From an uncultured delta proteobacterium (GTDB lineage Bacteria; Desulfobacterota; RBG-13-43-22): a stretch of DNA of 64,000 bases. Location of the stretch: positions 416,001 through 480,000 of the forward strand of contig CAWJJC010000020.1 of assembly GCA_963843145.1 (NCBI GenBank), read 5' to 3'. The notes below the pieces were generated by a model, which had not been told where the DNA came from, searched no databases, and saw nothing but the letters and a program-made list of their open reading frames with translations. Below, in pieces: positions 41,534-59,309 of this stretch (positions are counted from its first letter, which is position 1; every line of letters begins with the position of its first letter). A program made the position numbers and the translations under genes.

Positions 41534-43880
41534 TTACTTCTTTTCTTGCAGCGCCCGCCAGATCCGTTCGGAGGTGATGGGCAGTTCGTTGATGCGTACG
41601 CCGGTGGCGTCGTAGATGGCATTGAGGATGGCCGGGATGACGGGCATGATGCCTCCTTCGCCGACTTCCTTGGCCCCGTAAGGACCGTTGGGCTCGCCGC
41701 TTTCGATGATCAGGGACTGGATCGCCGGCACGTCCAGGGCCGTGGGGATCTTGTATTCTCCCAGGGAGGCGTTCAGGATCTGGCCCTTATCGTTGAACTT
41801 CACTTCTTCGAACAGGGACTCGCCCAGCCCCATGGAGACCGAGCCCTCCATCTGGCCTTCCACCTGCGTCCGGTTGATGGCCAGGCCGCAGTCGTGGGCG
41901 TCGGTGACCTTGTCCATGGTCACCTCGCCGGTTTCCAGGTCCACAGTCACCTCGGCTATCATGGCCGAACAGCCGTAGGCCGGGGAGGTCCCCACCGCCG
42001 CGCCCTTGAAGGACCCGCCCAGCTTGGGGGGCTTGTATTTCCCGGTACCCACGATGGTCCCCTTTTTCAGGTAGGCCAGGCGGGCCGCTTCCTTGAAGGT
42101 CAACTGGGTCTCCTGCGGCGGATCGCCCCAACCGCGGTGTTCCTTGATGTACCCGATCCGCAGGGCCTCGAAAGTCCGGCGTTTGCCCTTTGAAGGCGAT
42201 CAGACCGTTTCGGACCATAATCTCCTCCACAGGCACGTTCAAGGTCTCGGCGAGCACTTCCAGCACCTGGCGCTTGGCGTCCTCGGCCGCCTGCTTGGTG
42301 GCGTGGCCGGTCATCAGGGTCTGGCGGCTGGAGTAGGCCCCCAGGTCCACCGAATAGTCCGTGTCGCCCGAGACGATCCGCACATCCTCGAGCCGCACCC
42401 CCAGGGCCTCGGCGGCGATCATGGCAAAGGCCGTATCCGACCCCTGTCCGATTTCGGCGCTGCCGGTCTGTACCAGGGCCGTTCCCCCGTCTTCCGCAAG
42501 TTTGATCACCACCGTGGCATGATAGGTGTCGGAACGGTAGATGGGGTAACCGGCCCCGGAGACAAAGAACCCGCAGGCCATGCCGATGCCCTTGCCCTTG
42601 GGCAGCTTCCCCTTTTTTAATTTCCAGTCGGAGTTATCGCGGATGGCCTCGATGCACTCTTTCATGCCCAGACTGCTCATATCCAATTCGTTGCAGGTGA
42701 TGTCCCCGGTTTCCATGATGTTTTTCAGACGCATTTCCAAGGGATCCAGGCCCAGCTCCTTGGCGATCAGGTCCAACTGCTGCTCGAAACCGGCTCGAGC
42801 GGCCACCCCGCCGTGGCCCCGCTGGGCCCCACAGGCCGGCTTGTTGGTATAGAGCCGGAATCCGTCATATTTCATATTAGGCAGCTTGTAGGGGCCGCCC
42901 AGCAATGATCCGGCGTAATAGACGGTGGCGATGCCGAAACTGGAGTAGGCCCCTCCCTCCAGAAAACACTCGTTGTGCAGGGCCATCAGGGTCCCGTCCT
43001 TTTTCACGCCGGTCTTGAAAGTGTGAAAGAACTGATGCCGGCCGCGGCTGTGAAGAAAGACCTGCTCCCGGGTAAAGCCCATCTTGACCGGCTTGAGGGT
43101 CTTCATGGACAGCAGGCAGCTCAGCAGTTCCAGGGCGGAAGCCGCCGCCTTGGGCCCGAACCCGCCCCCCACGTAGGGCTTCACCACCCGGACCTTGCCG
43201 ATGGGCAGTTTCAGCACCATGGCCACGGTCCGCTGCACATAGTGGGGGACCTGGGTGGAGGTGTGGAGGGTCAAGTAGCCCTGCCCGTCGAAGACGGCCG
43301 TGCAGGCGTTGGGTTCCAGAAAGGCCGCGTCCTGCCTTTTGTTGACGAATTTGTGCAGGTGGATAAAGTCGCATTGAGCGAAGGCCGCTTCCACGTCCCC
43401 GAACTCCTGATGCACTTCGGCGCAGATGTTGCGGGGAAAATGCTCGTGTACCAGGGGCGCGCCTTCGGCCATGGCGGCCACGGGGTCGAAGACCGCCGGG
43501 AGCTCCTCGTATTCCACCTTGATTAAACCCAGCGCTTCCAGGGCGGTTTCCTGGTCAATGGCCGCCACGGCCGCCACTTCATCTCCTACGTAGCGGACCT
43601 TGTTCACCGCCAAAATAGTCTCGTCGTAGCGGGCCGGGGAAACTCCGTAGGGAATGATCTCCAGGTCTTTAGCCGTCACCACGGCCTTGACCCCCGGAAG
43701 GGCCTTGGCTCGGGAGGTGTCGATGTTCAGGATGCGGGCATGGGCCAGAGGGCTTTGCAGGATAGCCCCGTAGAGCTGGTTGGGGAATGTCAGGTCATCG
43801 GCGTAAATCGCCTGGCCGGTGGATTTGGCCGGGGCATCCAATCGCGGCGCCCGGCTGTTGATCACGCTGTATTGGCTCAT
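41534..43880 (-). CDS. hcrA: Xanthine oxidase family molybdenum subunit, 4-hydroxybenzoyl-CoA reductase alpha-like; +1 frameshift at ~42172
   Basis: VGGGFG, AQRGHG (HcrA-type RGHG), EIGQGS, GAYSSR, GPYGAKEVGEG; removing one T (aaa at 42171-42173) joins the two ORFs. Confidence 0.75.
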
Positions 43881-43930
43881 AGGTAATTCCTTCCTTATGA
43901 ATGGATCTGGGCTGGAATGCGGGACGGTCT

Positions 43931-44398
43931 TCAGCCGTCCGCTTTAACGGAGGCGATGGCCTCCACGATCTTCTGGTATCCGGTGCAGCGGCAGAGATTG
44001 CCGCTGATGGCTTCCCGGATCTCTCTTTCCGTGGGCGCGGGATTTTTATCCAGCAGGGCCTTGCTGGTCAGGATCATACCCGGACTGCAGAATCCGCATT
44101 GGATGGCACCGAGATCCACAAAGGCCTGCTGCAGGGGATGCAGTTTTTCCCCATCGGCCAACCCTTCAATGGTCGTGATTTCCTGCCCGTCGGCTTCGAC
44201 CGCCAGGACCAGACAGGAATTGACCGGCTTTCCGTTCAACAAAACCGTACAGGAGCCGCAATCCCCCACGGCGCACCCTTGCTTGGTCCCGGTAAGACGT
44301 AAATTTTCCCGCAGCACCTGGGTCAGGGTCTTATTCACCGGGATGACCAGATCGTATTCCTGGCCGTTCACTTGCAAATTAATGGTCATCTTCTTCAT
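43931..44398 (-). CDS. hcrC: 2x[2Fe-2S] subunit of the molybdoenzyme
   Basis: GTKQGCAVGDCGSC, QCGFCSPG, GNLCRCTGY. Confidence 0.8.
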   Translation of the reverse strand: MKKMTINLQVNGQEYDLVIPVNKTLTQVLRENLRLTGTKQGCAVGDCGSCTVLLNGKPVNSCLVLAVEADGQEITTIEGLADGEKLHPLQQAFVDLGAIQCGFCSPGMILTSKALLDKNPAPTEREIREAISGNLCRCTGYQKIVEAIASVKADG

Positions 44399-44408
44399 CT
44401 GCGCTCTC

Positions 44409-45302
44409 CTAAGCCGTTTTCATGAGCTGTTGATAGGCGGACATCAGGGTCCGGACGGTTAAAATCTCGATCAGGGCCCGGCGGTACTCGGCCGATCCGC
44501 GATGGTCGTCAATGGGCTTACCATCCCGGGCGGCCGCCCGGGCCGCTTCCAGGAACAAGGAATCCCCTGATCCCACGGGCTTTTCGCCTTTCAGGATCTT
44601 TTCCGCCGATTTGGCCCGGAGCGGGGTGGGCCCCACGGCCCCCAAGGCAATTCGCGCCTGCCGGATGGATCCCTCCGGACCCAATTCCAGAAAAGCGGCC
44701 ACATTGACCAGGGAGATCTCCAGGGCCTTGCGGGAACCCAGCTTCAGGTAGGCGCTGCCGCAGGGACCTTCGCAGGAGGGGATATAGATTTGGGATAGAA
44801 TTTCTTTGGGTTTGATGGAGGTTTTCCCGGGACCTTTGAAAAACTTCTCCACTTCCAATTCCCGCTCCCCGTCCTTGTTCTTTAAAATCAATTGCGCGCC
44901 TAAAACCATTAGAGGCGGGGCGAGATCCGAGGCCGGCCGGGCGGTAACGATATTTCCGCCCAGGGTGGCCCGATTGCGAATCAGGGGAGATCCCAACCGT
45001 CCGGCCCCCTGGGCCAGAACGGTCAAATGTTCCTGAACCAGTTCCGATTCCGCCAGTACGCTCGCGGTAACCAACGGACCGATGGAGATCCCTTTCCCTT
45101 TCTTAGGAATAATCTCGTTGAGGCCTTTGATCTTATTCAGGCTTACCACCTGCTGGGGGGCCAGGACTTTTTTCTTCAGGTTGACCAGGAGATCGGTCCC
45201 GCCGGCCAGGAGCTTGGCCTTGGCCCCGAATTCCTCCAACAGGGCGCAGGCCTCCCGCAGGCTTTTGGGGGCCTGGTAGTCAAATTTGGGCAGTAACATC
45301 AT
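44409..45302 (-). CDS. hcrB: FAD subunit of the molybdoenzyme (HcrB/CoxM-like, no [4Fe-4S] insert)
   Basis: LAGGTDL, IRNRATLGGNI, PASD, PIDDHRGSAEYR. Confidence 0.75.
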   Translation of the reverse strand: MMLLPKFDYQAPKSLREACALLEEFGAKAKLLAGGTDLLVNLKKKVLAPQQVVSLNKIKGLNEIIPKKGKGISIGPLVTASVLAESELVQEHLTVLAQGAGRLGSPLIRNRATLGGNIVTARPASDLAPPLMVLGAQLILKNKDGERELEVEKFFKGPGKTSIKPKEILSQIYIPSCEGPCGSAYLKLGSRKALEISLVNVAAFLELGPEGSIRQARIALGAVGPTPLRAKSAEKILKGEKPVGSGDSLFLEAARAAARDGKPIDDHRGSAEYRRALIEILTVRTLMSAYQQLMKTA

Positions 45303-45425
45303 ATCCTCCTATTTAGTATGGTTGCGGGCTACGAGATCTTTTACGGAATTTATCCTGAGCCCAAGACCGAGACCCTTCGCGGAGTCTTTCCCGCCTGCGG
45401 GACTCAGGCTGACCGGTCAGCGCGA

Positions 45426-45779
45426 TCAATCGGGCCAATGGCTTAATTCCAACTCAATAGGTAATTCGGCGGCCCAAGCTTTCAAGAGCAGGGCATTGGC
45501 TTTGGCCTGGGCGATCCGCAAGGCCTGGATTTCTCCGGGGTCGATTCGTTCCGCCAGAGGAAAAACCAAGCAACTGAAATAATGCCAGTCTTTATACCCC
45601 CCAAAGGGCGTACCGTCAAGAGGACGATTGCCGGCTTTGATCCCCCGGGCAATCTGCAGGTCTACCGGCACGACCACATGATACCGCTGCCCGTCCGGAG
45701 AAATCCCAATATACCCTTCGTTGCCGCATCGGTCGTCCAAGGTGGCCCGGAGAATGTCGTTGAAGTCGATGGTCATCAT
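45426..45779 (-). CDS. Hypothetical protein
   Basis: 117-aa ORF in operon position after thiS. Confidence 0.7.
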   Translation of the reverse strand: MMTIDFNDILRATLDDRCGNEGYIGISPDGQRYHVVVPVDLQIARGIKAGNRPLDGTPFGGYKDWHYFSCLVFPLAERIDPGEIQALRIAQAKANALLLKAWAAELPIELELSHWPD

Positions 45780-45788
45780 TATAATTAT

Positions 45789-45989
45789 TTATCCACCAAA
45801 GGCCGGATGGATCAACTCCAGCACATCCCCTTCTTTCAACGGGGTCGCTTCGTAATCTTTCTGATGGATAAACCGGTGGTTCAACTCCACAATCATGTGG
45901 ACCTCAAATTCCTGATTGCTGCTGATGACCGAGGAGACCGTGCTGTTCTCCGGCAGTTCCTCCTGAAATCCGTTTAAAATAATCCGCAT
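45789..45989 (-). CDS. thiS: ThiS/MoaD family sulfur carrier
   Basis: MRIILNG...VELN...L.EGD.LELI...GG C-terminus. Confidence 0.85.
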   Translation of the reverse strand: MRIILNGFQEELPENSTVSSVISSNQEFEVHMIVELNHRFIHQKDYEATPLKEGDVLELIHPAFGG

Positions 45990-46039
45990 GGCCCAACCCG
46001 AAATATCCGGTAAAGACTTTTTGCCTTTAGTTAACCTAC

Positions 46040-46675
46040 TTAAATAGTTGACGTTTCGTCTTTTCGTTCCGCCGAACCCGTTCTAGCCAATGACTCCCGA
46101 ACCAAACGCCTGGCCGTGGGGGTCCGAAACCAGGTCTTGGATCCCTCCAGGAGAAACCGGCGGCCCTCCTGCAAATAATTCTCGCCGAACATCTTTCGGT
46201 AACGCTGCAGGCTTTCTTCACCGAAGCGGTCCAGGCGATCCGCCTCCATGACCAGGATGGCCTCCGGATCCGGCAGGGCCTGAATAGCATCCGGTAGATC
46301 ATGAACGGCGATTATCTTTAGAACCAATTCTTTTTTGCCTTTCGGAAAATCAAGGGGATCCAAAATTTCACGGGCCAGGACAGCGCCTTGAACCATATGT
46401 TCCTTTAGACTGCGGGTCTCCTTTTTTTTCTCCGGCGGGGCCTGCACGAAATCATCAAAGGAAACCCGGCTCCAGCCGATGTCGTGGAGCACCAGGGCGG
46501 TCAGGACGACCTCCGGATCCCCTTTTTCCTCATTCAACAAGGCCTTACCATATGCGATGGCCCTGAGGGTATGATCCCAGTCATCGGGCCGCCCCTGGAG
46601 CAAATAGGGCCGTGCCTTCTCCTTAAGCTGAATTTCCCAGGGTGTTAAGGAACCCGCTGACTTTTCACCCGACAA
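46040..46675 (-). CDS. HD domain phosphohydrolase
   Basis: HTLR...LHDIGW...H...H...EADRLD. Confidence 0.88.
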   Translation of the reverse strand: MSGEKSAGSLTPWEIQLKEKARPYLLQGRPDDWDHTLRAIAYGKALLNEEKGDPEVVLTALVLHDIGWSRVSFDDFVQAPPEKKKETRSLKEHMVQGAVLAREILDPLDFPKGKKELVLKIIAVHDLPDAIQALPDPEAILVMEADRLDRFGEESLQRYRKMFGENYLQEGRRFLLEGSKTWFRTPTARRLVRESLARTGSAERKDETSTI

Positions 46676-47939
46676 GCTTTTCTCTTTTCCTATCCCTGGA
46701 TTTCAAAAAGGGACTCTCGGTAATTTCCCGAAAAGTCCGCACCACTTCTTCGGCAAATCGGGGATCATTGATGTGAGCCGGGATTTCCTTCACTCTGATC
46801 CCCGGGGGGGCGCTTCGTTTAATCGCCTCGATAAACACCCGGTCGACGGCCAGATCGAAAAAGGATTTTCCCGGACTGTCAAAGACCGAATATCCTCCGG
46901 AGGGCAGCAGGAGCGCTGTGGGGCCGGCGGCCAACTTTAATTTTTCCGCCACCACCCCGGCCAATCGTTTCATCTCCTGGGCGTTGGTCCGAACCACACA
47001 AATAGCCGCATTATGCACATGGATCGGACGGTTTTTATAGCGAGGCGGGAGGGTTTCCGGCGGTCCGGTGACGATAAAATCGATGTTGCCCGGGATGAGG
47101 ATCGTCGGCAGCCCTTTGGTTAAAGCCGCTTCCAGACGGTGGGCCCCGGCGTCATAGGACCCTTTGAAAAGATGGTCCACCAATTCATGAAGCGAGACCT
47201 CGATGACGGCTTGCGGTTCCCCCTCCACCACCAACTCCTCCAGAGCCTGGCCCCCGGAGCCGACGGTGTGAAACACCGCCAATTCCCAGCCCGACTTTTC
47301 CAGGTCCGTTCTGAAATGACGGATACAGGCTTCGGTAGTCCCCAGGGTGCTTACGGCGATCAGCGGCGTCTCAAAATGTTTCTTGCTCCGAGGGGTGAAC
47401 CGGACCATCCCAGCCATAGCCCCGGCCGCCTGAGACAACACCTGCCGAGTCATGCGGTTGAGCCCCACTAAATCCACCACCGAATGGTACATGAGGATAT
47501 CTTTACTCCCCACGAACGGCCGGGTATCCCGGGAAGCCATGGTGGAAACCATGAGTTTGGGAAACCCGAAAGGCAAGGCCCGCATGGCGCTGGTGCCGAG
47601 AGTGGTCCCCATGGATCCCCCCAGGCCGATGATACCGTCGATTTCTTCCTGATCGTAGAGGTCCCGGACCACCTTGATGGCCCCCTGCACCATGGTCCCC
47701 ATGGCCTTGCCTTCATGCCCCAGGCGGCGCAGGGCGGCCAGGGAACTCCCGGCCTTGCGGGCCAGGGCGCTGGCCGGAATATCCGCCGGGCTGGTCGCGC
47801 CACTCAAGATTCCCCCGTCAATCACCAGAACATTCACCTCGGCCTCCCTCAGTCGCTCTCTCAGGAAAGCGACCTCGGATCCTTTAGTATCCAGGGTGGC
47901 CAGAATGGCTACGGTGGGCTTGGCCTTTGTTTTTTTCAT
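46665..47939 (-). CDS. Tm-1-like ATP-binding protein (UPF0261)
   Basis: TLDTKG.E, GLGGSMGT, MRALPFGFPKLMVSTMAS, FHTVGSGG, HINDP.FA. Confidence 0.9.
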   Translation of the reverse strand: MKKTKAKPTVAILATLDTKGSEVAFLRERLREAEVNVLVIDGGILSGATSPADIPASALARKAGSSLAALRRLGHEGKAMGTMVQGAIKVVRDLYDQEEIDGIIGLGGSMGTTLGTSAMRALPFGFPKLMVSTMASRDTRPFVGSKDILMYHSVVDLVGLNRMTRQVLSQAAGAMAGMVRFTPRSKKHFETPLIAVSTLGTTEACIRHFRTDLEKSGWELAVFHTVGSGGQALEELVVEGEPQAVIEVSLHELVDHLFKGSYDAGAHRLEAALTKGLPTILIPGNIDFIVTGPPETLPPRYKNRPIHVHNAAICVVRTNAQEMKRLAGVVAEKLKLAAGPTALLLPSGGYSVFDSPGKSFFDLAVDRVFIEAIKRSAPPGIRVKEIPAHINDPRFAEEVVRTFREITESPFLKSRDRKREKLVG

Positions 47940-47989
47940 GGTGTCCTTCCTCATAACCTCGCAAAAAGTCAAAAAACGACTTTCTGCTC

Positions 47990-48017
47990 GGCGGGGGAGG
48001 GCTTCCCCTCCCCCGCC
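47990..48017. terminator. Perfect 12-bp hairpin between ubiX and the Tm-1-like gene
   Basis: ggcgggggaggg-cttc-ccctcccccgcc. Confidence 0.45.
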
Positions 48018-48063
48018 ATTTGAAATGAATTCAAATGGTCCCACCCCTACCCCAGCCCGGCGC

Positions 48064-48681
48064 TTAATCGCGCTCGGGCTGCTGACGGACCTCTGGCGAG
48101 TCCATCACACCCGCCCAGCGTTTAAAATCCGGAACTTCGATATCGAAGAGGTCCAAAATTTTTCCGATGCTGTGCCGGATGATATCTTCCAGGTCTCTGG
48201 GTCGATGGTAAAAAGCCGGTACGGGCGGAAAGAGGATCGCCCCCATATCGGTCAACCGCAGCATTAATTCCAAGTGTCCCCGGTGCAGCGGGGTCTCCCG
48301 CACCGCCACCACCAGCTTGCGCCGTTCTTTCAAGGTCACATCCGCCGCTCGAATCAGGATGTTGACGTTGAAGGAGTTGGCCAGGGCCGAAAGGGTTTTA
48401 ATGGAACAGGGCAGGATCACCATGCCCCTCGTCCCTTTAAAAGACCCGCTGGAAACCGGAGCGGCGATATCGTCGAGATCATAGCAGACCGTGGCCATTT
48501 TTTTTACCTGCTCCACGGCATAATCCGTCTCCAGTTCAATCGTGCGTTCGGCCGCCCGACTGAGGATCAAGTGGGTGGCGATGTTTATTTTCTGCAGGAT
48601 CTCCAGCAGCCGGATGCCGTAAATGGCCCCCGAGGCCCCGGAGATGCCGATGATTAGTCCCTGGTTGGGCATAGATACCAC
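48064..48681 (-). CDS. ubiX: Flavin prenyltransferase
   Basis: GISGASGAIYG, SSGSF, PCSIKTL, RAADVTLKERR, RETP, PAFY. Confidence 0.96.
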   Translation of the reverse strand: MVSMPNQGLIIGISGASGAIYGIRLLEILQKINIATHLILSRAAERTIELETDYAVEQVKKMATVCYDLDDIAAPVSSGSFKGTRGMVILPCSIKTLSALANSFNVNILIRAADVTLKERRKLVVAVRETPLHRGHLELMLRLTDMGAILFPPVPAFYHRPRDLEDIIRHSIGKILDLFDIEVPDFKRWAGVMDSPEVRQQPERD

Positions 48682-48776
48682 ATTTCCTTTAAATCGACCC
48701 CCTCCACCCTGCTTTTAGGGGAGAGGGAACAATCAAATCTATCTCAGGTTGTAATAGTACGTTCCCTAGGTGTATT

Positions 48777-49205
48777 TCATTTTTTACTCCCTCTTACCCA
48801 TCGTGGGGGAGAGGGTTGGGGTGAGGGGGTTCCAGCCTTTTCAATGATCTTCCGGGTCAACCGCTCTGTCATATTTACGATGGTCTGGATCTCTTCCGGG
48901 TTCAAATTATCCCAATGGATACCGGCGGTGACCACCACATTTTTCTTAAGGGCCGAGGCCAATACCTCCGATACCCTCCTGGCGGTTACATCCTCCTTAT
49001 GCCCCAACAAGGTCAGCACCGAAGAAGTCGCGCTGGTCTTCTTCTTATCCCGCAAACTGGGACGGGGCAGCGCCAGGGCTACGGCCCCGATATGGGGGTG
49101 GGTCCCGCCCCAGACGGCGACCAATAAATCCCGCCCCAGGGATTTTACCAAGGCCTCCAATTTAAAACGCCCCTCTTTGATGGAAACGGAAATAGGCTTC
49201 ATCAT
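48777..49205 (-). CDS. lpdD: Prenylated-flavin chaperone LpdD-like protein
   Basis: G.DLLV..WGG..PHIGAVA...GHKED.....V...L...VVV.AGIH; adjacent to ubiX; tail overlaps a REP copy. Confidence 0.7.
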   Translation of the reverse strand: MMKPISVSIKEGRFKLEALVKSLGRDLLVAVWGGTHPHIGAVALALPRPSLRDKKKTSATSSVLTLLGHKEDVTARRVSEVLASALKKNVVVTAGIHWDNLNPEEIQTIVNMTERLTRKIIEKAGTPSPQPSPPRWVRGSKK

Positions 49206-49254
49206 GGATATCGGCGTTCCCCCTGCCGGCCCCCCGGTCCAGAAAGGTTGGACC

Positions 49255-50493
49255 TCAGGGCTTGAGGACTCTGATCATAGCCTCCACCGCGGCTCGGGCG
49301 AAGGCGGGATCATTTAAATAGGCCTCAACGGTCTGAATGGTGATTTCGGGTTTACAATGCTGCCGGAGGGTTTCGGTAAAGAACCGATCCTCTTCCGGAT
49401 CATAGGCGGCGCTGCCGGGGGCATCCGCCGTAGACCAGCCCCGGGTAGGGATCAGCAGGATCACCGGTCCCTGGGCCTGATTCAGTTTCCCGGCCATTAC
49501 TTCGGCCACTTGTTTTAATTCATCCGTACTCAAACGAAGCCAGGTGCGGTCCTTATCCAGATCGTATTTGCGCCGCTGGGCGTAATCCGGTTTATAGTTT
49601 TTCCGGCTGGGGCTCATGAAATTCACCCCGCTGGGGGCGATCACTTGCGGGATACCCAACTTTCCGGCCGCCTCCAGCCGCTTCGATCCGGCGGCCCGCA
49701 TGCCGCCCAGGAGCTGTTCGCCCACCCCGCCGGGGGCCAGATCCACCACGCCGTCGAAATAGCCTTCGGCGATCATCTCTTCCATCGCCCGATCGCAGAT
49801 GCCGGCGGCGTGAAAACCGATGACCTGGAAACCGGCCTGGGTAAGACCGGCCTGGATGAGGTGAGCGCAGGGATCGCAAGGTCCGAACATGGACAGGGCG
49901 ATCTGCTTTTGGGCCGATCCTCTGGCCGCCTCCGCGGAGAACCGAGGTTCCTGGGCCATGGCCCTGACCGCCCGGGCGGCCCGATTAAGCACATTTTTCA
50001 AGTGGGGACTCAACCCGGAGAGCTCAATAACTGTGTGAAAGAGCATGATGTCGCCGGTCCCGATGTAGCGGGTGGAGAGCCCCGGCAGGGCGGCGCTGGA
50101 GGAAACCATGACTTTGGGAATTCCAAAGGGCAGCGCGCGCATGATGTTCGTGGCGATCATGGAAAGTGTGGCCCCGCCCAGACCAAGGACGCCGGCCAAC
50201 CGGCCTTCCTCCAGCAGTTTCCGGGCGATCTTGACCGCCCCCTGGGTCATATCCCTGGTAATACCGGTCCGATCGCGGGAGGCGCGGACGGCTTCAATCG
50301 TAGTTCCTCCTTGCAAAGCGACTTCGTCCGGCAGGATATCCCCCTTCTCCCTGGCCGCCGCCCCCATGGACAAATCCATGGTCAGGGCCCGGCCGCCCAG
50401 CGCCCGGATCTGATCCTGCAAATAAAGGGTTTCCTGCGCCTTGGTATCCAAGGTTGAAATAATCAGAATGGCTGAGTCTATGGAATTTATCAT
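49255..50493 (-). CDS. Second Tm-1-like ATP-binding protein (UPF0261)
   Basis: STLDTK.QE, GLGG, MRALPFGIPKVMVSS, FHAAG, LNDPAFA. Confidence 0.9.
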   Translation of the reverse strand: MINSIDSAILIISTLDTKAQETLYLQDQIRALGGRALTMDLSMGAAAREKGDILPDEVALQGGTTIEAVRASRDRTGITRDMTQGAVKIARKLLEEGRLAGVLGLGGATLSMIATNIMRALPFGIPKVMVSSSAALPGLSTRYIGTGDIMLFHTVIELSGLSPHLKNVLNRAARAVRAMAQEPRFSAEAARGSAQKQIALSMFGPCDPCAHLIQAGLTQAGFQVIGFHAAGICDRAMEEMIAEGYFDGVVDLAPGGVGEQLLGGMRAAGSKRLEAAGKLGIPQVIAPSGVNFMSPSRKNYKPDYAQRRKYDLDKDRTWLRLSTDELKQVAEVMAGKLNQAQGPVILLIPTRGWSTADAPGSAAYDPEEDRFFTETLRQHCKPEITIQTVEAYLNDPAFARAAVEAMIRVLKP

Positions 50494-50518
50494 AAGCTAT
50501 CGCGTTTCCTGTTGACAA

Positions 50519-50645
50519 GGACCAAAGGATCGAGGAACGAGGATAAAGGTTTCTAGATCCTTTTTCCTCGTTCCTTTATCCTTAATTTGTTGTCTGATTT
50601 TTTTGCCTTTCCGCTTTGCGCTTTGCCCTCCGCGCTCTGCGTTTT
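50519..50645. repeat. 7-nt periodic, partly palindromic intergenic repeats
   Basis: aaggatcgaggaacgaggataaagg / cctttttcctcgttcctttatcctt and (cgctttg)n-like tract. Confidence 0.55.
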
Positions 50646-50646
50646 C

Positions 50647-52300
50647 TTATTTTCCCGCCTTGACCCACTCTTCCAGTTGCGTCTTCAAAACCTTCTTATC
50701 GACCTTGCCTGAATCCCCTACCGTCGGCAGGGCCGGGACCAATTCCAAACGTTCGGGCAGCTTATAGGCGGAAATCTTCTTCTCTTTCAAAAAGGCCTTC
50801 ATCTCTTCAAAGGTGAGGGTCTGCCCGGCCTTGGGAACCACGTAGGCGCAGGCCCGCTCCCCCATCTCCCGATCCGGGTAACCGACGACGGCCACACTGG
50901 CTACCGCCGGATGACCGTTCAGCAGACCTTCGATTTCCGCCGGGTAAATATTCTGGCCGCCGCGGATGATCATGTCCTTGGCCCGTCCCAGGATCCAAAG
51001 GCAGCCCTGGTCGAACTTAACGATGTCGCCGGTGGTGGTCCAGCCGTCTTGATCGAAAACCGTGGCCGTCAATTCCGGATCCCGGTAATAGCCGGCCGGG
51101 GCATGGGGGCCCCGGAACCAGAGGATCCCGGGTTCGCCGTCCGGAACCGGGTTGCCCTGTTCGTCCTTAAGGACCACCTTGTTGCCCGGAAGCATCCGGC
51201 CCACTGTCCGGCGACGCAGGTCCTTGGAGTCATCGACCGAACAACCGGACACGGAGCCCACGTCCTGGGTACCCAGGTCACTGGTAATGGCCGCCCCGAA
51301 GGCCTTTTCGGCCTCTTCCGCCACCTGGGGCGACAGGTAACCGCCGGCGGACCGGATGAACCGCAGGGAGCTCAAATCATATTTCGTGGTATCCGCCTCG
51401 AGCATCCGCACCAGGTGGGTCGGCACCACCCCGATGGCCGTGGCTTTTTCCTTTTCGATCAGGGCCAGGGCCGCCTCCGGGTTGAATTCTTCCAGCATCA
51501 CGGTTTTGGCCCCGGCCAGGGGGGCCGCAAAATAGGTCAGGGTCCCGGCGGCCCCGCCGGCATGGGGGGCGATGGCCATGGTGATATCGTCTTTGGTCAG
51601 CTTCCAGATAGCCACCCGGCCCTTGGAGGTACAGACCCGGGGGGCGATGGGCCACTCAACCAGCTTGGGCAGACCGGTGGTCCCGGTCGTACTGGTCAGC
51701 AGACCGATGTCCCACTTGGGGTTGAAGCGCCGAGCATTCAGCAGTGCCTTCGTCAATCGGTTTAGCCAGGGATTCCTCCGCCAGTTTGATCAGGGAATAG
51801 GTATTTTTCGGGGCCTCCGGGGGAACCGTCTCCTCAAAAAGAAAAATGTGCTTTAAAAACGGAAAACGGACCTGCAGTCCCTTATACATTTCCAGGTAAT
51901 TAAAATTGCGGTAGATATAACAGATGATCACCGCCTCGGCCTGGGTCTTTTCGACGAAGTGCTCCAACTCGCGCTCCCGCAGATAGGGGTAGACGGTCAG
52001 GGAAATGAGCCCGGCCCGTTCGCTGGCGACGCGGGCCAGAAAGCCATAGACGCTGTTAGGGGATTGAATAATGATCCGGGCATCCTTGGGGATGCCCATT
52101 TGGACAAAGTTCTGGGCGATCCCGTCAATCAGCCGTTTGGCCTGCTTCCAGGTGAGCCGGTATTTGGAATCCACCAGGGCTTCGCGGTCCCCGAATTCCC
52201 GCACATTGCGTTCGTAAAAATCATAAAAGGTTTCGTCGGTCCAGTACCCGTCGCGGGTGTATTCATCGACCATTTCCTGCGTGTAGCGTATGGGTTTCAC
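50647..52300 (-). CDS. Aryl/acyl-CoA ligase (candidate 4-hydroxybenzoate-CoA ligase); +1 frameshift at ~51748
   Basis: TTGTTGLPK, GWTTTGD, GRAKDMIIRGG.NI, MGERACA, SGKVDK; the two ORFs join if one base is removed. Confidence 0.8.
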
Positions 52301-52420
52301 TATCAACCTCCGTTATGAATTAAAACGAATATCGATCACCGAATTCGTTTTTGTTTTCGTATTAAACCCCCATGCCCGGGGGGTACCCGCAAAGCATGAA
52401 GATGGATGATTAAACTAAAA

Positions 52421-52650
52421 GTCGTCATTCCGGCGGAAGCCCTTCGGCTTGCTCAGGGCCATGAGCTTTGTCGAATGGCCGGAATCCGGCAGTAAAGTTC
52501 TTGGGTCAACTGGATGCCGGATCAGGTCCGGCATGACGGCAAAAGCAGCTTCCTGGAAACGGTTATAGCTGGGTGCGGGAGGGGTTAACAGCTCGGCTGA
52601 ACCTTTCGGTGAACTCAAGGCCCTGAGCTCGTCGAAGGGCTCGCCGAAGT
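52421..52650. repeat. Cluster of nested REP-like palindromes
   Basis: gtcattccggc..gccggaatcc..ggatgccggatcaggtccggcatgac with a cccttcggcttgctcagggccatgagctttgtcgaatgg insert; ctcggctga..gctcgccgaagtc with a second insert. Confidence 0.7.
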
Positions 52651-52759
52651 CCCCTCCCCTGCACTCGAACTAATAATCAACGTCTAATTAATAATTAGTA
52701 ATTGAGAATTGATTGTTGATCATTAATCACGGTCCTCCCCAGCCCCAAGGCTTTCCACT

Positions 52760-52792
52760 CCGACCCCCTTTCCTGGCAGGAAAGGGGGTCGG
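52760..52792. terminator. Perfect 16-bp inverted repeat downstream of ppcB
   Basis: ccgaccccctttcctg-g-caggaaagggggtcgg. Confidence 0.55.
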
Positions 52793-52833
52793 CCATGGCA
52801 AAACGAGGAAGAACTTGGCTGACGTTCAGGCCT

Positions 52834-54240
52834 CTAGAGGCCGAATTCCTTCCAGCGGCTTTCAACTTGCTTGACCATATCCGGGTCCAGCGCAATCGGG
52901 ATGGGTTTCTCCTTCCAGTCGTAGGGAATGGTGGCGTCCAAAAGCAACCGGCCGGTGATGTCCCGGGAATCGATGGGCAGCGATGGATCCAACGGCGTGG
53001 ATCGCCCGCGCTTGATAACCTGGCTGCGGTTGGGCTGGAAGCGAAAGCTCAGGGCGTACATGACCCGGGGAATGTCCCAGGCGTCGATGTCGTCGTCCAC
53101 CACGATGACGGTCTTGAGACCGTAGGCCCCCATTTCGGTGGAGATGGCCGCGGTCAGCACCTGATCGGCGTGGCCCGGGTACATCTGCTTCAGGGAAATA
53201 ATGGCCAGGAAGCGGCCCGATCCCTCGGGCGGACAATATACCGATTTAACCCCCGGAATCTTCATGGCAGTCAATTGTTGCCAGAGGGTCGACCCGTAAG
53301 ACAAGGCCATGGTCATGTGCGTATCGGTCACCGCCCGGCCAACCGTGGTCCCCCAGAGTATGGGGTTGTTCCGGAAAGTAACGCATTGGACGTCAATAAA
53401 ATTCCGGGGGTCCGTGCCCACCCCTGAATAGTAGCCGGTGTATTCCCCAAAGGGGCCTTCCGGCAAAAATTTTTCCGCATCCACCAATCCCTCGATGACG
53501 ATCTCGGCGTGGGCCGGGATGGGCAAGTCCACCGTCTCCCCCTTGACCACTTCAATGGGGGCCCCGGCGATGGCCCCGGCCACATCGTACTCGGAAACGA
53601 AGGCCGAGAGCCGGGCCGCGCCCAAGACAAACAGCAGCGGATCCCCGCCGATAACCGAGGCCACCGGCATGGGCTTTTTCAGGGCCTGGTATTTCTTGAG
53701 CATAATATCGGCATGTTTGCCCTTGATGAATTGGGTGCCGACCTTGTCCTTCTCCAGCAATTGGGAGCGGTAGGTCCCCAGGTTGATCCAGCCGGAGTCC
53801 GGATCCTTGGTGATGATGTAATGGGCCGTGCCGATAAAGCGCCCGCCGTCCTTGGGATACCATTTGGGCACCGGGAACTTGAAGAGATCGATATCGCTCC
53901 CCTTCATGATGTTTTCCTTGCAGGGGGCCTGGTCTCGTTCCACCCAGACCGGCGGGATCAGTTTATCGCCCACCTTGACCCATTGCTCCATGAGCCCCAC
54001 CAGGCTGGTTTCTCTGGGCATGCGCATGAGGATCGCTAACCGCTGAGTGGTGGTGCAGACGCTGGTCATGACCGGGCTGCTATAGCCCTTCACGTTTTCA
54101 AAGAGCAAGGCCGGACCAAGTTTTTCCTCATTCAGTTTGGCGATGTGAGATAACTCCAGGTTCCAATCCACTTCCGCCTTCACCCGATGCACTAATCCGT
54201 CGGGTTCCCCTATGGCAATAAAATCTCTCAGATCTTTCAT
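52834..54240 (-). CDS. ppcB: UbiD family (de)carboxylase, phenylphosphate carboxylase beta-like
   Basis: EVDWNLELSHIAKLNEEK.GPALLFE, NLGTYR, EGPFGEYTGYY, RSTPLDPS; follows ppsAB. Confidence 0.85.
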   Translation of the reverse strand: MKDLRDFIAIGEPDGLVHRVKAEVDWNLELSHIAKLNEEKLGPALLFENVKGYSSPVMTSVCTTTQRLAILMRMPRETSLVGLMEQWVKVGDKLIPPVWVERDQAPCKENIMKGSDIDLFKFPVPKWYPKDGGRFIGTAHYIITKDPDSGWINLGTYRSQLLEKDKVGTQFIKGKHADIMLKKYQALKKPMPVASVIGGDPLLFVLGAARLSAFVSEYDVAGAIAGAPIEVVKGETVDLPIPAHAEIVIEGLVDAEKFLPEGPFGEYTGYYSGVGTDPRNFIDVQCVTFRNNPILWGTTVGRAVTDTHMTMALSYGSTLWQQLTAMKIPGVKSVYCPPEGSGRFLAIISLKQMYPGHADQVLTAAISTEMGAYGLKTVIVVDDDIDAWDIPRVMYALSFRFQPNRSQVIKRGRSTPLDPSLPIDSRDITGRLLLDATIPYDWKEKPIPIALDPDMVKQVESRWKEFGL

Positions 54241-54299
54241 AATTATTCTCCAGGCCTCCTTATTATTAGTGATTTATGATAATAGTACCCACGAAAGAT

Positions 54300-54482
54300 C
54301 CCACTCCGCGGGGTTGTCGGTTTGAGCGAAGCCTGTCCTTTGGTGAGAGGCCAAAGGACGATAACGCCCCCCGGTTTTCCACCCTTCGAAAACCGCCGGC
54401 CGACTGGTCCGTCCCGGTCGTCCTCTCCCGGCCGAAACGGATCAGCCTCCGCTCAAAGATCCTTTCCCCCGCGGGGAATGGG
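54300..54482 (-). other. Multibranch structured intergenic element
   Basis: Outer pairs ccgcgggg/ccccgcgg and tttgagcg/cgctcaaa enclose hairpins 54335-54359, 54372-54395 and 54401-54420. Confidence 0.55.
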
Positions 54483-55568
54483 CTAAAATTTCCTGCCCTG
54501 CATCAATCCGGCCACAATCTGTTCCATGGCCGTGGCCTTGGGCTTTACCACCGGCTCCACCTTTTTCTGGCTCCAGACCGTTTCTGGCCGGGCCTGAAGG
54601 ATGCGGACATTGCCGCCGGCCGGCAGGTCCTTATCCACGGCCCACTCAATATCCATCTGTTTGCCGTAATGGGCCTCGATCAACTTGCCGTACCGGGCCA
54701 GTTCCCTGATGTCTTTGTCGATGACCGATTGAACCTCCTTGCGTTCCTCTTCAACTTCCATCTCCACCAGTTGGTTGCGTTCGGGATTGGTAGTGAAATA
54801 CATTTCCTTGCGGGAAATGGTCCTCTTGAGGATCTCCAGGTTGATTTTATCCACCACGAACTGGTCGGGAGTTACCGACCCGCTGACCACTGACTCCCCC
54901 ACCCCCCAGTTGGCATCGATGACGATGACCGAAACGTCCCCGGAAGCCGGATTCAAGGTGAACATGACTCCGGCCGTAAAGGAGTTGACCATCTTCTGGA
55001 TGCCCACGCTGATCAGGACCTTCTCATGGTCAAAGCCCATCTTGATCCGATAGGTGATGGCCCGGGGGGTAAACAGGGAAGACCAACATAACCGGACCTT
55101 GTCGATGATTTCTTCCTGGGTGCGGACAAACAGGTAGGTCTCCTGCTGCCCGGCAAAGCTGGCCCCGGGCAGGTCCTCGGCCGTGGCGCTGGATCGAACG
55201 GCCACCGGCATCAGGGGCAGTTGCAGCTCCCGCCATAAATGGTTATAGCTATCCCCGATAGCCGTGGCGATCTCCTCCGGAATCGGGGTGCTTTCGATCA
55301 AGGCCCGGACAAATTGACTGGCGGACTCCACCCCGTCCATATCCTGCGGATCCAGACCCCGGAGCCGATCAAAAATCGGTTTCTTCAATCCCTGTTGGTT
55401 CAAATAGACGTCATAGGCTTCGGTGGTTATGGCATAACCGGGAGGGACCGGAATGCCAGCCCGGAGTAACTCCCCCAGACTGGCATTCTTCCCGCCCACC
55501 AAAGGCAAAAAGCTCAGGTCGCATTCTTCGAACCGTAAAATATAAGGGCTTTTTACTTCCTGACCCAT
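54483..55568 (-). CDS. ppsB: Phenylphosphate synthase beta subunit (PEP synthase ATP-grasp domain)
   Basis: VGGKNASLGE, VAVRSSATAEDLPGASFAGQQETYL, DIEWA, LQARPETVWS; no PEP/pyruvate TIM barrel. Confidence 0.88.
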   Translation of the reverse strand: MGQEVKSPYILRFEECDLSFLPLVGGKNASLGELLRAGIPVPPGYAITTEAYDVYLNQQGLKKPIFDRLRGLDPQDMDGVESASQFVRALIESTPIPEEIATAIGDSYNHLWRELQLPLMPVAVRSSATAEDLPGASFAGQQETYLFVRTQEEIIDKVRLCWSSLFTPRAITYRIKMGFDHEKVLISVGIQKMVNSFTAGVMFTLNPASGDVSVIVIDANWGVGESVVSGSVTPDQFVVDKINLEILKRTISRKEMYFTTNPERNQLVEMEVEEERKEVQSVIDKDIRELARYGKLIEAHYGKQMDIEWAVDKDLPAGGNVRILQARPETVWSQKKVEPVVKPKATAMEQIVAGLMQGRKF

Positions 55569-55571
55569 TCC

Positions 55572-57416
55572 TTACCTCCTGATGCTAATAACTCCCGTGC
55601 TGCCGTCCACCTTGATATAATCCCCGGTCTTGATCGCCTGGGTGCCGAGACCGGTGCCGACGATAGCCGGCACACCGTATTCCCGGCAAACAATGGCCGC
55701 GTGACACATGACCCCGCCCACGTCGGTGACGCAGGCCTTGATCTTCTGAAAGGCCGGGGCCCAACTGGGCGAGGTGGTGGGGGCCACGAGGATCTCGCCT
55801 TCCTGCAGTTGGTTGATTTCGGTCACGCTGCGGCAGACCCGGGCCGGCCCTTCCACCTGTCCGGGAGAGCCGGGGAAGCCCTTGAGTTCGGTCAGGGTGC
55901 TCAGATCGCCCACCTCTTTGGCCTTGGCCCAGTTGGTCATGCTCTCCGAGGTGACCCCCCAGAGAACGATGGTAAAGGGCTCGGTGATGGACTCCGGGGC
56001 GATCCCCAGGGCCGGCGGCGCGGTCCACTGCCGGAACTTATCCATGACCCCTTTGCGCCAGGTGATCTCCTTAGGCCAATAGAGCGGTCCGCGGGCCTTG
56101 GTGCCCGTGGCCCAACCGGTGACCAGATCCCAGAGGGCGTCCTTGATCTCGCTGCGCGAGAGGTACCAGATATCTTCCACGTCCTTGATAAAGCCGTGGT
56201 TGACCATAATGCCGGAAATCTTGCGCATCTGTTTCCAGAAGATGCTGTGGAACCAGTGCTCCACATAAAAGAGGTGGTTTTCCACGTAAGGAAAAACCGT
56301 TTTGGAAGTGCCCAGAAGCTGGTCGAAGGTAGCCCGGTCCTCATCGGTTTTCAGGAGCTTGCGGTATTCGGTGGTGATCTTGTCCCGTTCTTCCCGAACA
56401 TCGGCCAAGGGCCGTTCAATGGTGCCGCCCTTTTTCAGGGTGCCAATATAGATGCGGATCGAATCCAGCGGGATGTTGAGGTCATCCAGCCAGCAGGAGT
56501 CGTGGTGGTACCAACCGGTCCCGGTGGAGATGTAGAACCAGGGGTCTTTGGCCTTATCGAAGGCTGCCGTCCACTTCTTCCCCGCTTCTGTGGCCTGCAG
56601 TTTGGGCCAGAGCTGGTCGATCGTTCCGCCGTCCAGGATGGCATCGCCCAAACCCAGCTCCATGGCCAGCTTGGCCAATTTTTTCAGTTCCTCGTCGGGC
56701 TGGTACATGATGACGTCCACCCCGGAGACCATCTGGGTGACGCGCTGGATAGGAATATCCGGAAAGGCCTTCTGGCAGAAATCCAAAAAGACTACGTAGG
56801 CGGCATAACCGAGGTTTAAGAACTCAAAGTGATATTGCCAGGCCAGGATACCCAGGTCGATCAAATCGTCGTATTTTTTCAAGAGTTTATATCCGCTGCT
56901 GATTCCCAGACCTTCCAGTACCACCGACTCCTCCTCCATTTCCGGCAAATCGGAAATTTCGATAGCCGCTACCCTTTCAATCACCTCCCGCATCTTCTTT
57001 TCCCAATTATCATGGAGGCGATCCCAATTCTGGTAATAATAGCCGGCCCGCTTCATGAAGAGTTCGACCCGGGCGGGGATCGTACTCGGATCGGCCACCG
57101 GGACGGGGGTAATGTAGATATTGCCGTTTACGATGCGGTGATCGACTCCCAGGGCCGGCGGGACGATGAAAACCCGGGTATTATTCTGCGACAGGGCTAA
57201 GAACCAGGCCTCATCCCAGATGATGTCAAAGGGATACATCGGCTCGGGATAATGAAGGGCATCGTTAAACCAGAACATGCTTTTCTCATAGGCCTTTCGC
57301 TCCGGATCGTCGGTGGTAAACAGATAATGATAGGGATACATGCGTTCCCAGCCTTCCGTGCCGGGGATGGTGGGGATTTCATGGGGGTCAGGAAACTTCA
57401 TATTGGTTCCGGCCAT
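55572..57416 (-). CDS. ppsA: Phenylphosphate synthase alpha subunit (phospho-His domain)
   Basis: FPDPH....PGTEGWERMYPYHY N-terminus; TDVGGVMCHAAIVCREYG swivel-domain His; AAGGAG RBS. Confidence 0.88.
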   Translation of the reverse strand: MAGTNMKFPDPHEIPTIPGTEGWERMYPYHYLFTTDDPERKAYEKSMFWFNDALHYPEPMYPFDIIWDEAWFLALSQNNTRVFIVPPALGVDHRIVNGNIYITPVPVADPSTIPARVELFMKRAGYYYQNWDRLHDNWEKKMREVIERVAAIEISDLPEMEEESVVLEGLGISSGYKLLKKYDDLIDLGILAWQYHFEFLNLGYAAYVVFLDFCQKAFPDIPIQRVTQMVSGVDVIMYQPDEELKKLAKLAMELGLGDAILDGGTIDQLWPKLQATEAGKKWTAAFDKAKDPWFYISTGTGWYHHDSCWLDDLNIPLDSIRIYIGTLKKGGTIERPLADVREERDKITTEYRKLLKTDEDRATFDQLLGTSKTVFPYVENHLFYVEHWFHSIFWKQMRKISGIMVNHGFIKDVEDIWYLSRSEIKDALWDLVTGWATGTKARGPLYWPKEITWRKGVMDKFRQWTAPPALGIAPESITEPFTIVLWGVTSESMTNWAKAKEVGDLSTLTELKGFPGSPGQVEGPARVCRSVTEINQLQEGEILVAPTTSPSWAPAFQKIKACVTDVGGVMCHAAIVCREYGVPAIVGTGLGTQAIKTGDYIKVDGSTGVISIRR

Positions 57417-57595
57417 CTTTGCTTCTCCTTTTTGGTGGTGGGTAAAAATTAAAAGCAAAATACCTCTCCCTAAACTAAAGAACTATGAAGAAAAAAAATC
57501 ACCTCCTTTTCGTGTTTTTCGGAGTCCCTCAGGGATTGCAATTTCAGCGTCGGGATGCTTGCGGATAGGCGCCAGGCCTCTGGGAGCTAGCTTAA

Positions 57596-57624
57596 AGGGT
57601 AAAAAAAAACCCGGGTCTTGTCAA
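57596..57624 (-). promoter_or_regulatory. Sigma70 promoter for ppsA
   Basis: Minus strand TTGACA-17 nt-TACCCT. Confidence 0.6.
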
Positions 57625-57643
57625 GACAATTGATTTTATGATA

Positions 57644-57662
57644 CTATAAGAATTATTTATAG
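57644..57662. promoter_or_regulatory. LysR recognition box
   Basis: CTATAA-gaattat-TTATAG dyad containing T-N11-A, centred about -64 from the predicted ppsA transcription start. Confidence 0.65.
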
Positions 57663-57677
57663 CTAGGGCTCGCCCAT

Positions 57678-58583
57678 ATGAACCTTAACCAATTAAAATT
57701 ATTTTATATTTCAGGAAAAAGCCAGAGCTTCTCCGCCGCCGCCGAAGAACTCTATCTGACCCAGCCGGCAGTGACCATGCAGGTCCGGCAACTGGAAAAC
57801 TATTTTGGGGTACCCTTGTTTCATCGCCACGGAAAACGGATCGAGTTAACCGAGGCCGGCCGCCTCCTTTTCGGCTATGCCCGGAGAATCTTCGACCTGA
57901 CGGCAACCGCCGAAAGGGCCGTCTGGGAGTTGCGGGACCTGGAAAAGGGGACCCTAAAAATCGGCACCACCAAAACCTACGCCAAGCACCTCATGCCGGC
58001 CCTGATCTCCTCCTTTCGCGAACTGCACCCGGGCGTCCATGTCATCCTGGATGAGGGTAGCTCGGCGGAAATTGCCCGCAGCCTGCTGGTCCACAAGAAT
58101 GAGTTGGCCCTGATCGCCAAGGAATCCTATCCCCCGCCCTTAAAGGTGATTTCCTTTGCCCAGGAGGAACTGGTCCTGATCCTGGGACGCTATCACCCTT
58201 TAAGCAAGAGTCGCAAGCTGACCTTCCGGGATCTGGCCCGGGAGCCGCTGATCATCCGGGAAAGGGGCTCCGGCACCCGGGATATTATCCTGGATCATTT
58301 CCGGAAAGCCGGAATCAAACCCTCCATATTAACCGAAGCGGGAAATGTGGACTTCATCAAGGAACTGGTGGAAACCGGCAAGGGGATCTCCTTCGTGGTC
58401 CGCTCGGCGGTGGAAGAAGAACTGAAACGGGGCGCCCTTAAAACCCGGGCCCTGGCCGAGGGGCCTTTTTATTTAAATGTGGATATTGTTTACTTGAAAA
58501 ACCGCAGCCTCTCCCCCACGGCTCAGGCTTTTCTGGACCTGCTTTTGAAAAAAATCGGGGTCAGCGATGAAGCCCTGGCTTGA
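57678..58583 (+). CDS. LysR family transcriptional regulator
   Basis: MNLNQLKLF...SFSAAAEELYLTQPAVT.Q.RQLE, LTEAG, RERGSGTR. Confidence 0.96.
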   Translation: MNLNQLKLFYISGKSQSFSAAAEELYLTQPAVTMQVRQLENYFGVPLFHRHGKRIELTEAGRLLFGYARRIFDLTATAERAVWELRDLEKGTLKIGTTKTYAKHLMPALISSFRELHPGVHVILDEGSSAEIARSLLVHKNELALIAKESYPPPLKVISFAQEELVLILGRYHPLSKSRKLTFRDLAREPLIIRERGSGTRDIILDHFRKAGIKPSILTEAGNVDFIKELVETGKGISFVVRSAVEEELKRGALKTRALAEGPFYLNVDIVYLKNRSLSPTAQAFLDLLLKKIGVSDEALA

Positions 58584-58697: not shown

Positions 58698-59156
58698 ATG
58701 ACCCACATAAAAAAAATAGCCTATAGTACGGATTTTTCCGAGAATGCCGATCAGGCCTTTGAATTGGCCTTCGATCTGGCGAAAAAGTACGGGGCCCGGC
58801 TGTTTTTGGTCCATGTGGTCCCGCCCCTGGTCTTTCCTTCTCCTACCATGGAGGAATTCATTTCCGAACAGGCCAATTACCAGTTCATCGAACAGGTGAC
58901 CCAACGGTCCACCGAACAACTGGAAAGCCGTTATGTTGGGCGGATGGACGATTACCGCAATGTCGAGGTCCGGGTCCTCTCCGGCCACCCGGCCAGTGAA
59001 ATCCTGAACTTCATCGACCAGGAACAAGTGGACCTGGTGGTCATGGGCACCCATGGCTTTACCGGGCTGGCCCATTTCTTCCTGGGCAGTACCGCCGAAA
59101 AAGTGGTCCGTCGGGCCGGCTGTTCGGTTCTGACGGTTCATTCGCCCAGAGCCTGA
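58698..59156 (+). CDS. Universal stress protein
   Basis: TDFSENA, DLVVMGTHG.TG, LGSTAEKVVRRA. Confidence 0.93.
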   Translation: MTHIKKIAYSTDFSENADQAFELAFDLAKKYGARLFLVHVVPPLVFPSPTMEEFISEQANYQFIEQVTQRSTEQLESRYVGRMDDYRNVEVRVLSGHPASEILNFIDQEQVDLVVMGTHGFTGLAHFFLGSTAEKVVRRAGCSVLTVHSPRA

Positions 59157-59309
59157 TCGGCCTCCCGAGCCTGATAGGCCGGAAAAGTCCAACGCGCTTT
59201 TAATCGTCCACCGAACGGCGACCGAACCGAGTGGCGAATACCGTCCCCCTTTTCCGCTGGGTTCAACGCTGGTCAACGATCGGATGGCTGCCATGGAGAA
59301 AAGGCGAAA

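Follow-up and report, generated by a model that had tools for sequence, protein, structure and literature searches.

How a phenylphosphate carboxylase that has only the beta subunit, PpcB, handles phenylphosphate is a long-standing question in Geobacter and Desulfatiglans. The same question is raised by a gene cluster from an uncultured delta proteobacterium, which we have analyzed within a 64,000-nucleotide stretch of contig CAWJJC010000020.1 (the window). Fourteen co-oriented genes run along the minus strand from position 57416 down to 41534 with intergenic gaps of −11 to 533 bases, and a LysR gene departs divergently from 57678. All of the genes listed in the original prediction were found at the place and in the order that it gave, and the two UPF0261 (Tm-1-like) proteins, the HD hydrolase, and the LpdD-like protein of the run were confirmed by family scans. 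Taken as a whole, the cluster is likely to be a phe-type operon for the phosphorylation and carboxylation of phenol, in which the first UPF0261 protein (Tm1a) may take the place of PpcD. The cluster is of the same kind as the published phe cluster of Desulfatiglans anilini and is not a new system; its main value is in Tm1a as a candidate for the part of the carboxylase that removes the phosphate.

The Core of the Cluster and the Missing Subunits

PpsA (55572..57416), the alpha and His-phosphotransfer subunit of phenylphosphate synthase, was recognized by NF006152 with 1010 bits (cut-off 723) and contains the motif GGVMCH572AA. PpsB (54483..55568), the ATP-binding subunit, was identified by PF01326. 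The UbiD carboxylase PpcB (52834..54240), predicted to depend on prenylated flavin mononucleotide (prFMN), exceeded the cut-off of TIGR02724 (484 versus 469 bits) and is present as a single copy in this genome. Residues R158, E261, and E266 of PpcB are intact and were found to be invariant across 89 orthologs; Arg-Glu-Glu is what we take to be the catalytic set of the prFMN-dependent UbiD decarboxylases. Together with the gene for the flavin prenyltransferase UbiX in the same run (48064..48681; family scan), these residues make up the features of a prFMN-dependent UbiD system. This ubiX is the only one in the assembly and would also need to serve the UbiD of a menaquinone-like run at C20:691500. 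Between ppcB and ubiX are found the genes for an adenylate-forming aryl-CoA ligase of the DHB-AMP-ligase-like type (50647..52300) and for Tm1a (49255..50493).

The cluster shares PpsA with its phospho-His motif, PpsB, PpcB, and UbiX with the PpsABC/PpcABCD system of Thauera aromatica (PMC6114531), and the same overall chemistry is presumed, whereas PpsC, PpcA, PpcC, and PpcD are absent here. The absence of these four proteins, originally noted for the window, was found to hold for the whole genome, which is 97.9% complete with 6.9% contamination. No ppcA gene over the cut-off and no ppcC gene were found anywhere in the genome, and the same searches were positive in 4 of 4 control genomes. The sole genome match to ppcD was the housekeeping gene kdsC, and KdsC was ruled out as PpcD by its context within a kdsA-lptCAB run. 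No CBS gene is present in the run, and the best CBS protein of the genome reached 173 bits, whereas cluster-borne PpsC-like proteins have a median of 345 bits. Profiles made from cluster-borne genes agree with the absence of ppsC, ppcA, ppcC, and ppcD orthologs, and the genome-wide search that had been proposed with the prediction thus uncovered no ppcACD elsewhere. Neither of the other two UbiD genes was accepted as PpcA, since both scored below 170 bits compared with at least 861 bits for true PpcA, and one of them is located in the menaquinone-like run. The notion of a PpcA that lacks the catalytic glutamates was dropped, as the alignment shows EAPFGE and the arginine to be intact.

Contrary to the original supposition, the arrangement has been described before. 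In annotation, order, and size it agrees with the phenol-induced phe cluster of D. anilini DSM 4660 (H567DRAFT_02049-02059), for which ppsA, ppsB, one ppcB, ligases, a molybdenum (Mo) enzyme, and no ppcC were reported (PMC6114531; PMC7500099). In Table S1 of PMC7500099 the order is 02059 (ppcB), 02058 (DHB-AMP-ligase-like), 02057 (UPF0261), 02056 (ubiX), 02055-02053 (FAD, FeS, and Mo subunits), and 02052-02051 (ppsAB), and the sizes are 468, 552, 403, 193, 293, 154, 783, 615, and 358 amino acids (aa), respectively. Both clusters have the ppcB-ligase-UPF0261-ubiX-FAD/FeS/Mo run and ppsAB with proteins of nearly equal size, and both are without ppcC, ppcA, ppcD, and ppsC. They differ in that ppsAB is located upstream here, in that lpdD, a second UPF0261 gene, the HD gene, thiS, and the gene for a 117-aa protein are found inside the run, and in that the run contains neither the receiver-domain gene nor the paaK-like ligase; a further difference is that the genome described here has a single PpcB. 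In the published D. anilini data the level of UPF0261 protein 02057 is raised 13.7-fold (mean of 3) on phenol relative to benzoate, and the nearby second UPF0261 protein, 02061, is not induced by phenol (0.9-fold). The aniline cluster is listed with a UPF0261 protein of its own, 03869, and a 175-aa receiver-domain protein, 02050, is listed as abundant on phenol. A stand-alone 176-aa receiver-domain gene occurs in 42 of 80 related loci (L007, L011, L013, and others), mostly between ppcB and the ligase gene, and is absent here. The term "Tm-1" does not appear in the main text of PMC7500099. A 403-aa protein of an uncultured Desulfatiglans was found to be 58% identical to Tm1a.

Geobacter metallireducens was likewise reported to have only ppcB (PMC6114531). 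As described for strain GS-15 (PMC1924859), Gmet_2100-2105 shares the order ppsA-ppsB-single ppcB, a 418-codon hypothetical gene, which is assigned to UPF0261 by size and position only, and a ubiX-like gene. It differs in the presence of a CBS (ppsC-like) gene and in that the ligase and the Mo enzyme are not part of the run.

PpcB Neighborhoods across the Phylum

Two sets of ppcB loci were compared. The first comprised the 80 best of 404 PpcB relatives (79-99% identical), from which the 54 loci with at least 5 kb of downstream sequence were counted and 26 short loci were left out. The second comprised all 75 ppcB loci over the cut-off, besides the one described here, in 401 genomes sampled evenly across the phylum; 61 of these had at least 5 kb downstream, and 14 were left out. 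The two sets partly overlap, and the counts were therefore not summed. Calls for ppcA passed TIGR02723 in 9 of the 9 cases checked, and the calls for ppcC and ppcD fit their models below the cut-off.

In the first set a UPF0261 gene was found downstream of ppcB at all 54 loci, and ppcD, ppcA, or ppcC at none of them. At the whole-genome level ppcA was found in 0 of 40 genomes of this set and a ppcC-like gene in 1 of 40. In the second set, 39 of the 61 loci contained UPF0261 alone, 18 contained ppcD, ppcA, and ppcC alone, 2 contained both, and 2 contained neither. The UPF0261 copy at the two loci with both is a different one that resembles the aromatic kinase MarK. The description of the cluster as non-canonical is thus apt relative to Thauera, but in this phylum sample the single-PpcB type with UPF0261 is the commoner architecture.

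The accessory genes were counted at those ppcD-free loci with 8 kb of downstream sequence (35 in the second set and 43 in the first). UPF0261 was present in 34/35 and 43/43 of these, lpdD in 15/35 and 17/43, the HD gene in 5/35 and 17/43, and a copy like that of the second UPF0261 protein (Tm1b) in 6/35 and 10/43, respectively. The conserved core is ppsAB-ppcB-UPF0261-ubiX, usually with the ligase, and HD, LpdD, Tm1b, and ThiS are optional extras; HD as a core part was rejected on these counts. The single-UbiD aryl-phosphate carboxylation system with a different accessory set that was originally proposed is borne out in its single UbiD without ppsC or ppcACD and in the conservation of UPF0261 beside ppcB, but not in the HD, LpdD, and second UPF0261 proteins, which are not conserved.

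A match to the clade of Tm1a was obtained in 43 of 45 non-ppcD genomes versus 1 of 26 ppcD-type genomes, a comparison that is partly circular in that the profile was built from the same loci and the cut of 470 bits was chosen after the scores were known. The Thauera-type loci of the sample are without this clade. Frequent features of the Thauera-type clusters of the phylum (L088-L104, L112, L113, L120, L121, and L155) are a tandem pair of ppcD-like genes, a third UbiD in which aspartate replaces the first catalytic glutamate, and, next to ubiX, a CTP-dependent riboflavin kinase of the archaeal type.

Tm1a, Tm1b, and the Phosphoryl Group

The UPF0261 proteins had been called uncharacterized. 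This no longer applies to the family, which now holds MarK of Novosphingobium aromaticivorans (PDB 9MPY), an aromatic kinase reported in 2025 to phosphorylate phenolics with conversion of ATP to ADP (PMC12624787). MarK has the same fold as Tm1a and Tm1b, and its gene precedes that of a biotin-dependent side-chain carboxylase in an aerobe. No connection between UPF0261 and phenylphosphate was found in the open-access literature, most subscription journals being outside the scope of the search. Tm1a and Tm1b are 32% identical to one another. In a tree of 170 UPF0261 proteins (rows shorter than 370 aa left out; some duplicates between the sets), the first UPF0261 protein after ppcB forms one clade of 109 rows with a support of 0.999, and 106 of the 109 are encoded in that position.

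Residues were numbered by the alignment with 9MPY. Tm1b (46665..47939), which matches 9MPY with 297 bits, and its 21-row clade keep D14, T15, K16, G195, T196, H219, F283, and H304. The position of H348, which contacts the ketone of acetovanillone in MarK (PMC12624787), is occupied by phenylalanine in Tm1b; the replacement of this contact would fit a kinase for a phenol without a para carbonyl. We slightly favor the prediction that Tm1b is an optional second kinase, forming ADP, for phenol or a simple alkylphenol. A third UPF0261 gene elsewhere in the assembly (L163; G000:C15 21000-22300) is split, and an HD gene and a Mo-enzyme triad come after it.

The Tm1a clade keeps the ATP motif D-T-K (or D-E-R) and G195, but T196, I285, H304, and the family-wide E247 and H384 are changed, so that the aromatic pocket is rebuilt. 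Tm1a itself has P196, S285, L304, and G247, and H219 is kept. The MarK site set D14-T15-K16, G195, H219, and H304 is therefore complete in Tm1b, as in 21 of 21 rows of its clade, and not in Tm1a. The clade has also gained the conserved charged residues D234, R235, E259, and R266. The predicted structure of Tm1a (predicted local distance difference test score, pLDDT, of 94.8) matches the folds of Tm-1 and MarK. As judged from the alignment, Tm1a is a specialized UPF0261 subfamily and not a plain MarK. The prediction of a complex between PpcB and Tm1a (89-row alignments, one copy each) gave a score of 0.00 and was counted neither way.

In the proposed pathway PpsAB would phosphorylate phenol at the expense of ATP, forming AMP and Pi, and UbiX and LpdD would load PpcB with prFMN. 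Tm1a would take the phosphoryl group off phenylphosphate and give phenolate to PpcB, as PpcD does in Thauera; PpcB would carboxylate the phenolate to 4-hydroxybenzoate, the ligase would form the CoA ester, and the Mo enzyme would take off the hydroxyl group. Homology and the D. anilini proteome make phenol as the substrate, and each of these reactions other than that of Tm1a, highly probable. The carboxylation of the ring requires phenolate, and the phosphate must therefore leave first. In Thauera it is removed by the delta subunit, PpcD (PMC6114531). The ppcD candidate of D. anilini was not found in the 2018 proteome, and phenylphosphate carboxylase activity was reported as not demonstrable in extracts (PMC6114531). 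The refolded PpcB proteins of D. anilini, without UPF0261, carboxylated phenylphosphoamidate, which decomposes by itself, and not phenylphosphate. Clusters without ppcD carry the Tm1a clade, which belongs to a family with aryl-phosphoryl transfer (MarK). Tm1a is tentatively put forward, with somewhat less than balanced confidence, as the replacement for PpcD in the removal of the phosphoryl group, and this estimate includes a form of the reaction that recovers ATP.

In that form Tm1a would run the MarK reaction in reverse and transfer the phosphoryl group of phenylphosphate to ADP, with one ATP regained per phenol. Aryl phosphates have a high transfer potential, MarK forms ADP by simple, reversible kinase chemistry, and the ATP motif is retained in the Tm1a clade. 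The authors of the D. anilini study call the cost of four ATP unexplained (PMC6114531). Nevertheless, the recovery of ATP would take away the driving force of hydrolysis for the carboxylation, an uncoupled reaction would set up a futile cycle with PpsAB, and the MarK pocket is not kept in Tm1a. We regard this form as doubtful.

The residue changes suit a different reading, in which Tm1a is a pseudo-kinase that serves as an ATP-sensing or structural subunit in place of PpcA and PpcC, and removal of the phosphate falls to the HD protein, a housekeeping phosphatase, or PpsA. The clade retains D-T-K but not the family-conserved E247, H304, and H384, the plant protein Tm-1 uses ATP as a mere binding bridge, and an HD hydrolase (46040..46675; PF01966) is present in this run. 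However, the HD gene is optional, as counted above, and D234, R235, E259, and R266, which the clade conserves on its own account, fit a rewired site. This reading is somewhat unlikely, though less so than the reversed kinase.

It is also conceivable that Tm1a does not act on aryl phosphates and instead assists either the CoA ligase or the supply of cofactor, such as that of prenyl phosphate for UbiX. The order ligase-UPF0261-lpdD-ubiX is frequent, and helper proteins for cofactors, among them Nudix proteins and the CTP-dependent riboflavin kinase, are encoded in other clusters. Clusters of the ppcD/A/C type, however, have ubiX but not the Tm1a clade. Moreover, the clade directly follows ppcB even at the loci that have no ligase (9 of 39), and its genes are found beside divergent ppsAB pairs (L171 and L172) in fetched stretches that contain neither ubiX nor UbiD. 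These positions tie Tm1a to aryl phosphates, and a cofactor or ligase role is the least probable of the readings considered. One further gene of the clade (L164) is located away from ppcB, beside LysR and oxidoreductases.

Several observations weigh against the proposed pathway and the assignment of Tm1a as the replacement for PpcD. A single branch of the PpcB tree sets the ppcD/A/C type apart (Shimodaira-Hasegawa-like approximate likelihood ratio test, 100; 1 change; 75 rows), and the mutual exclusion of UPF0261 and ppcD/A/C is therefore one evolutionary event kept through many rearrangements, with counts that are not independent. One genome of the ppcD/A/C type (G240) has a Tm1a-clade gene 17 kb from ppcB. 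E247 is replaced by G, A, or S in 109 of 109 rows of the clade, H304 is mostly L, and H219 is S in 70 of 109; from the loss of residues that are kept in MarK, Tm-1, and Tm1b, the clade may be non-catalytic. In the D. anilini assay with phenylphosphate the protein had been refolded and was supplied with FMN in the absence of prFMN, which alone is enough to explain the failure. The likeness to D. anilini is one of annotation, gene order, and protein size. The dienoyl-CoA hydratase model gave no match at E 1e-30 in this genome.

The Molybdenum Enzyme, the Substrate, and the Optional Genes

The last three genes of the run encode an enzyme of the xanthine oxidase family, with an FAD subunit (44409..45302), a 2x[2Fe-2S] subunit (43931..44398), both from family scans, and an HcrA-like Mo subunit (41534..43880). 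The Mo subunit is split here, and each of its halves has TIGR03194 as the best model (695 and 218 bits); an intact ortholog (L136) scored 943 bits, with a cut-off of 994.55. The FAD subunit is 297 aa in length, compared with 293 aa for D. anilini 02055, and the 38-residue Cys-rich insert of HcrB, which holds a [4Fe-4S] cluster, is absent. By this feature the enzyme is not a member of HcrCAB, and it probably works like HcrCAB with another entry for electrons. A second Hcr-like triad (L160; G000:C28 546500-552200) has an FAD subunit with the Cys-rich insert and a split Mo subunit; its neighbors are a DHB-AMP-ligase-like gene and a TRAP transporter. Matches over the cut-off were obtained in the genome for dsrA and for Oah, the ring hydrolase of the benzoyl-CoA pathway.

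The substrate was originally left as phenol or another phenolic or aniline-type compound. Phenol is much the likelier, and we consider it unlikely that the native substrate is instead a substituted phenol (of the cresol, catechol, or guaiacol type) or aniline. A broader range is suggested by the two types of kinase in a single operon, the Mo enzyme departs from the canonical HcrCAB, and the PpsA orthologs of like clusters fall into groups of ~44% and ~70% identity. Yet PpsA proteins that are 69-70% identical are found in clusters with full ppcABCD. Aniline is disfavored by PpsA itself, which has 614 aa and passes the PRK08296.1-4 equivalog, whereas the aniline enzyme PasA has 554 aa and is 27% identical to PpsA. 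Two divergent PpsA-like genes (L161 and L162; G000:C6 2300-35000) encode proteins of ~560 aa that are 27-28% identical to PpsA. They are accompanied by PpsB-like genes, an aryl-CoA ligase, an electron transfer flavoprotein, transporters, and a Mo enzyme, with no UbiD, and may represent other aryl-phosphorylating routes.

Both the Mo-subunit gene and the ligase gene are interrupted by one extra base, near 42174 by comparison with a related contig and near 51748 by comparison with loci L001 and L004. The two frameshifts are probably assembly errors, because relatives are without the extra base (the ligase is intact in them) and the same kind of split occurs in 4 of 13 near-full-length Mo-subunit genes of this assembly. 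None of the public sequencing runs searched contains the source sample (best share, 0.23). In three RNA runs, contigs of related organisms cover the region, mostly at 90-95% identity, and give no evidence of transcription.

The putative LpdD-like prFMNH2 chaperone (48777..49205) matches PF21758 and the structures of LpdD from L. plantarum (E 2e-10); it belongs to a family with a PAC-like fold, and its binding of prFMN is predicted. The ThiS/MoaD-like sulfur carrier (45789..45989; PF02597) ends in GG. The conserved hypothetical protein of 117 aa (45426..45779; pLDDT 89) has 206 homologs and is encoded 5' of the Mo-enzyme genes, an arrangement found at 8 loci for the FAD-subunit gene. It gave no match to Pfam or the Atlas and no fold match (best Z, 3.2), which is not proof of a new fold. 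The LysR regulator (57678..58583, plus strand) was identified by Pfam HTH_1 and LysR_substrate, and a LysR match is present in 60 of 80 related loci. A scan for promoters and terminators was at chance level (11 versus 8.2 and 28 versus 24.5). Intergenic inverted repeats occur at 52350-52800, 50510-50600, and 54320-54460, and the stretch at 52440-52510, which attracts many unrelated contigs, is probably a dispersed repeat. Beyond LysR (58698-63747) are genes for Usp, a cNMP-CBS-DUF294 protein, and an acetyl-CoA hydrolase/GNAT fusion.

The comparison names one protein, Tm1a, as the candidate for the missing part of the carboxylase and sets it apart from its MarK-type look-alike, Tm1b. On the PpcB tree the single-PpcB type surrounds the Thauera type, and it could be the older architecture, although the root is weak. 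There is a small chance that the Tm1a clade supplies the subunit that the single-PpcB phenylphosphate carboxylase of strict anaerobes lacks, and that it acts as a reversed aromatic kinase. If this were true, sulfate reducers and syntrophs would regain one ATP for each phenol.

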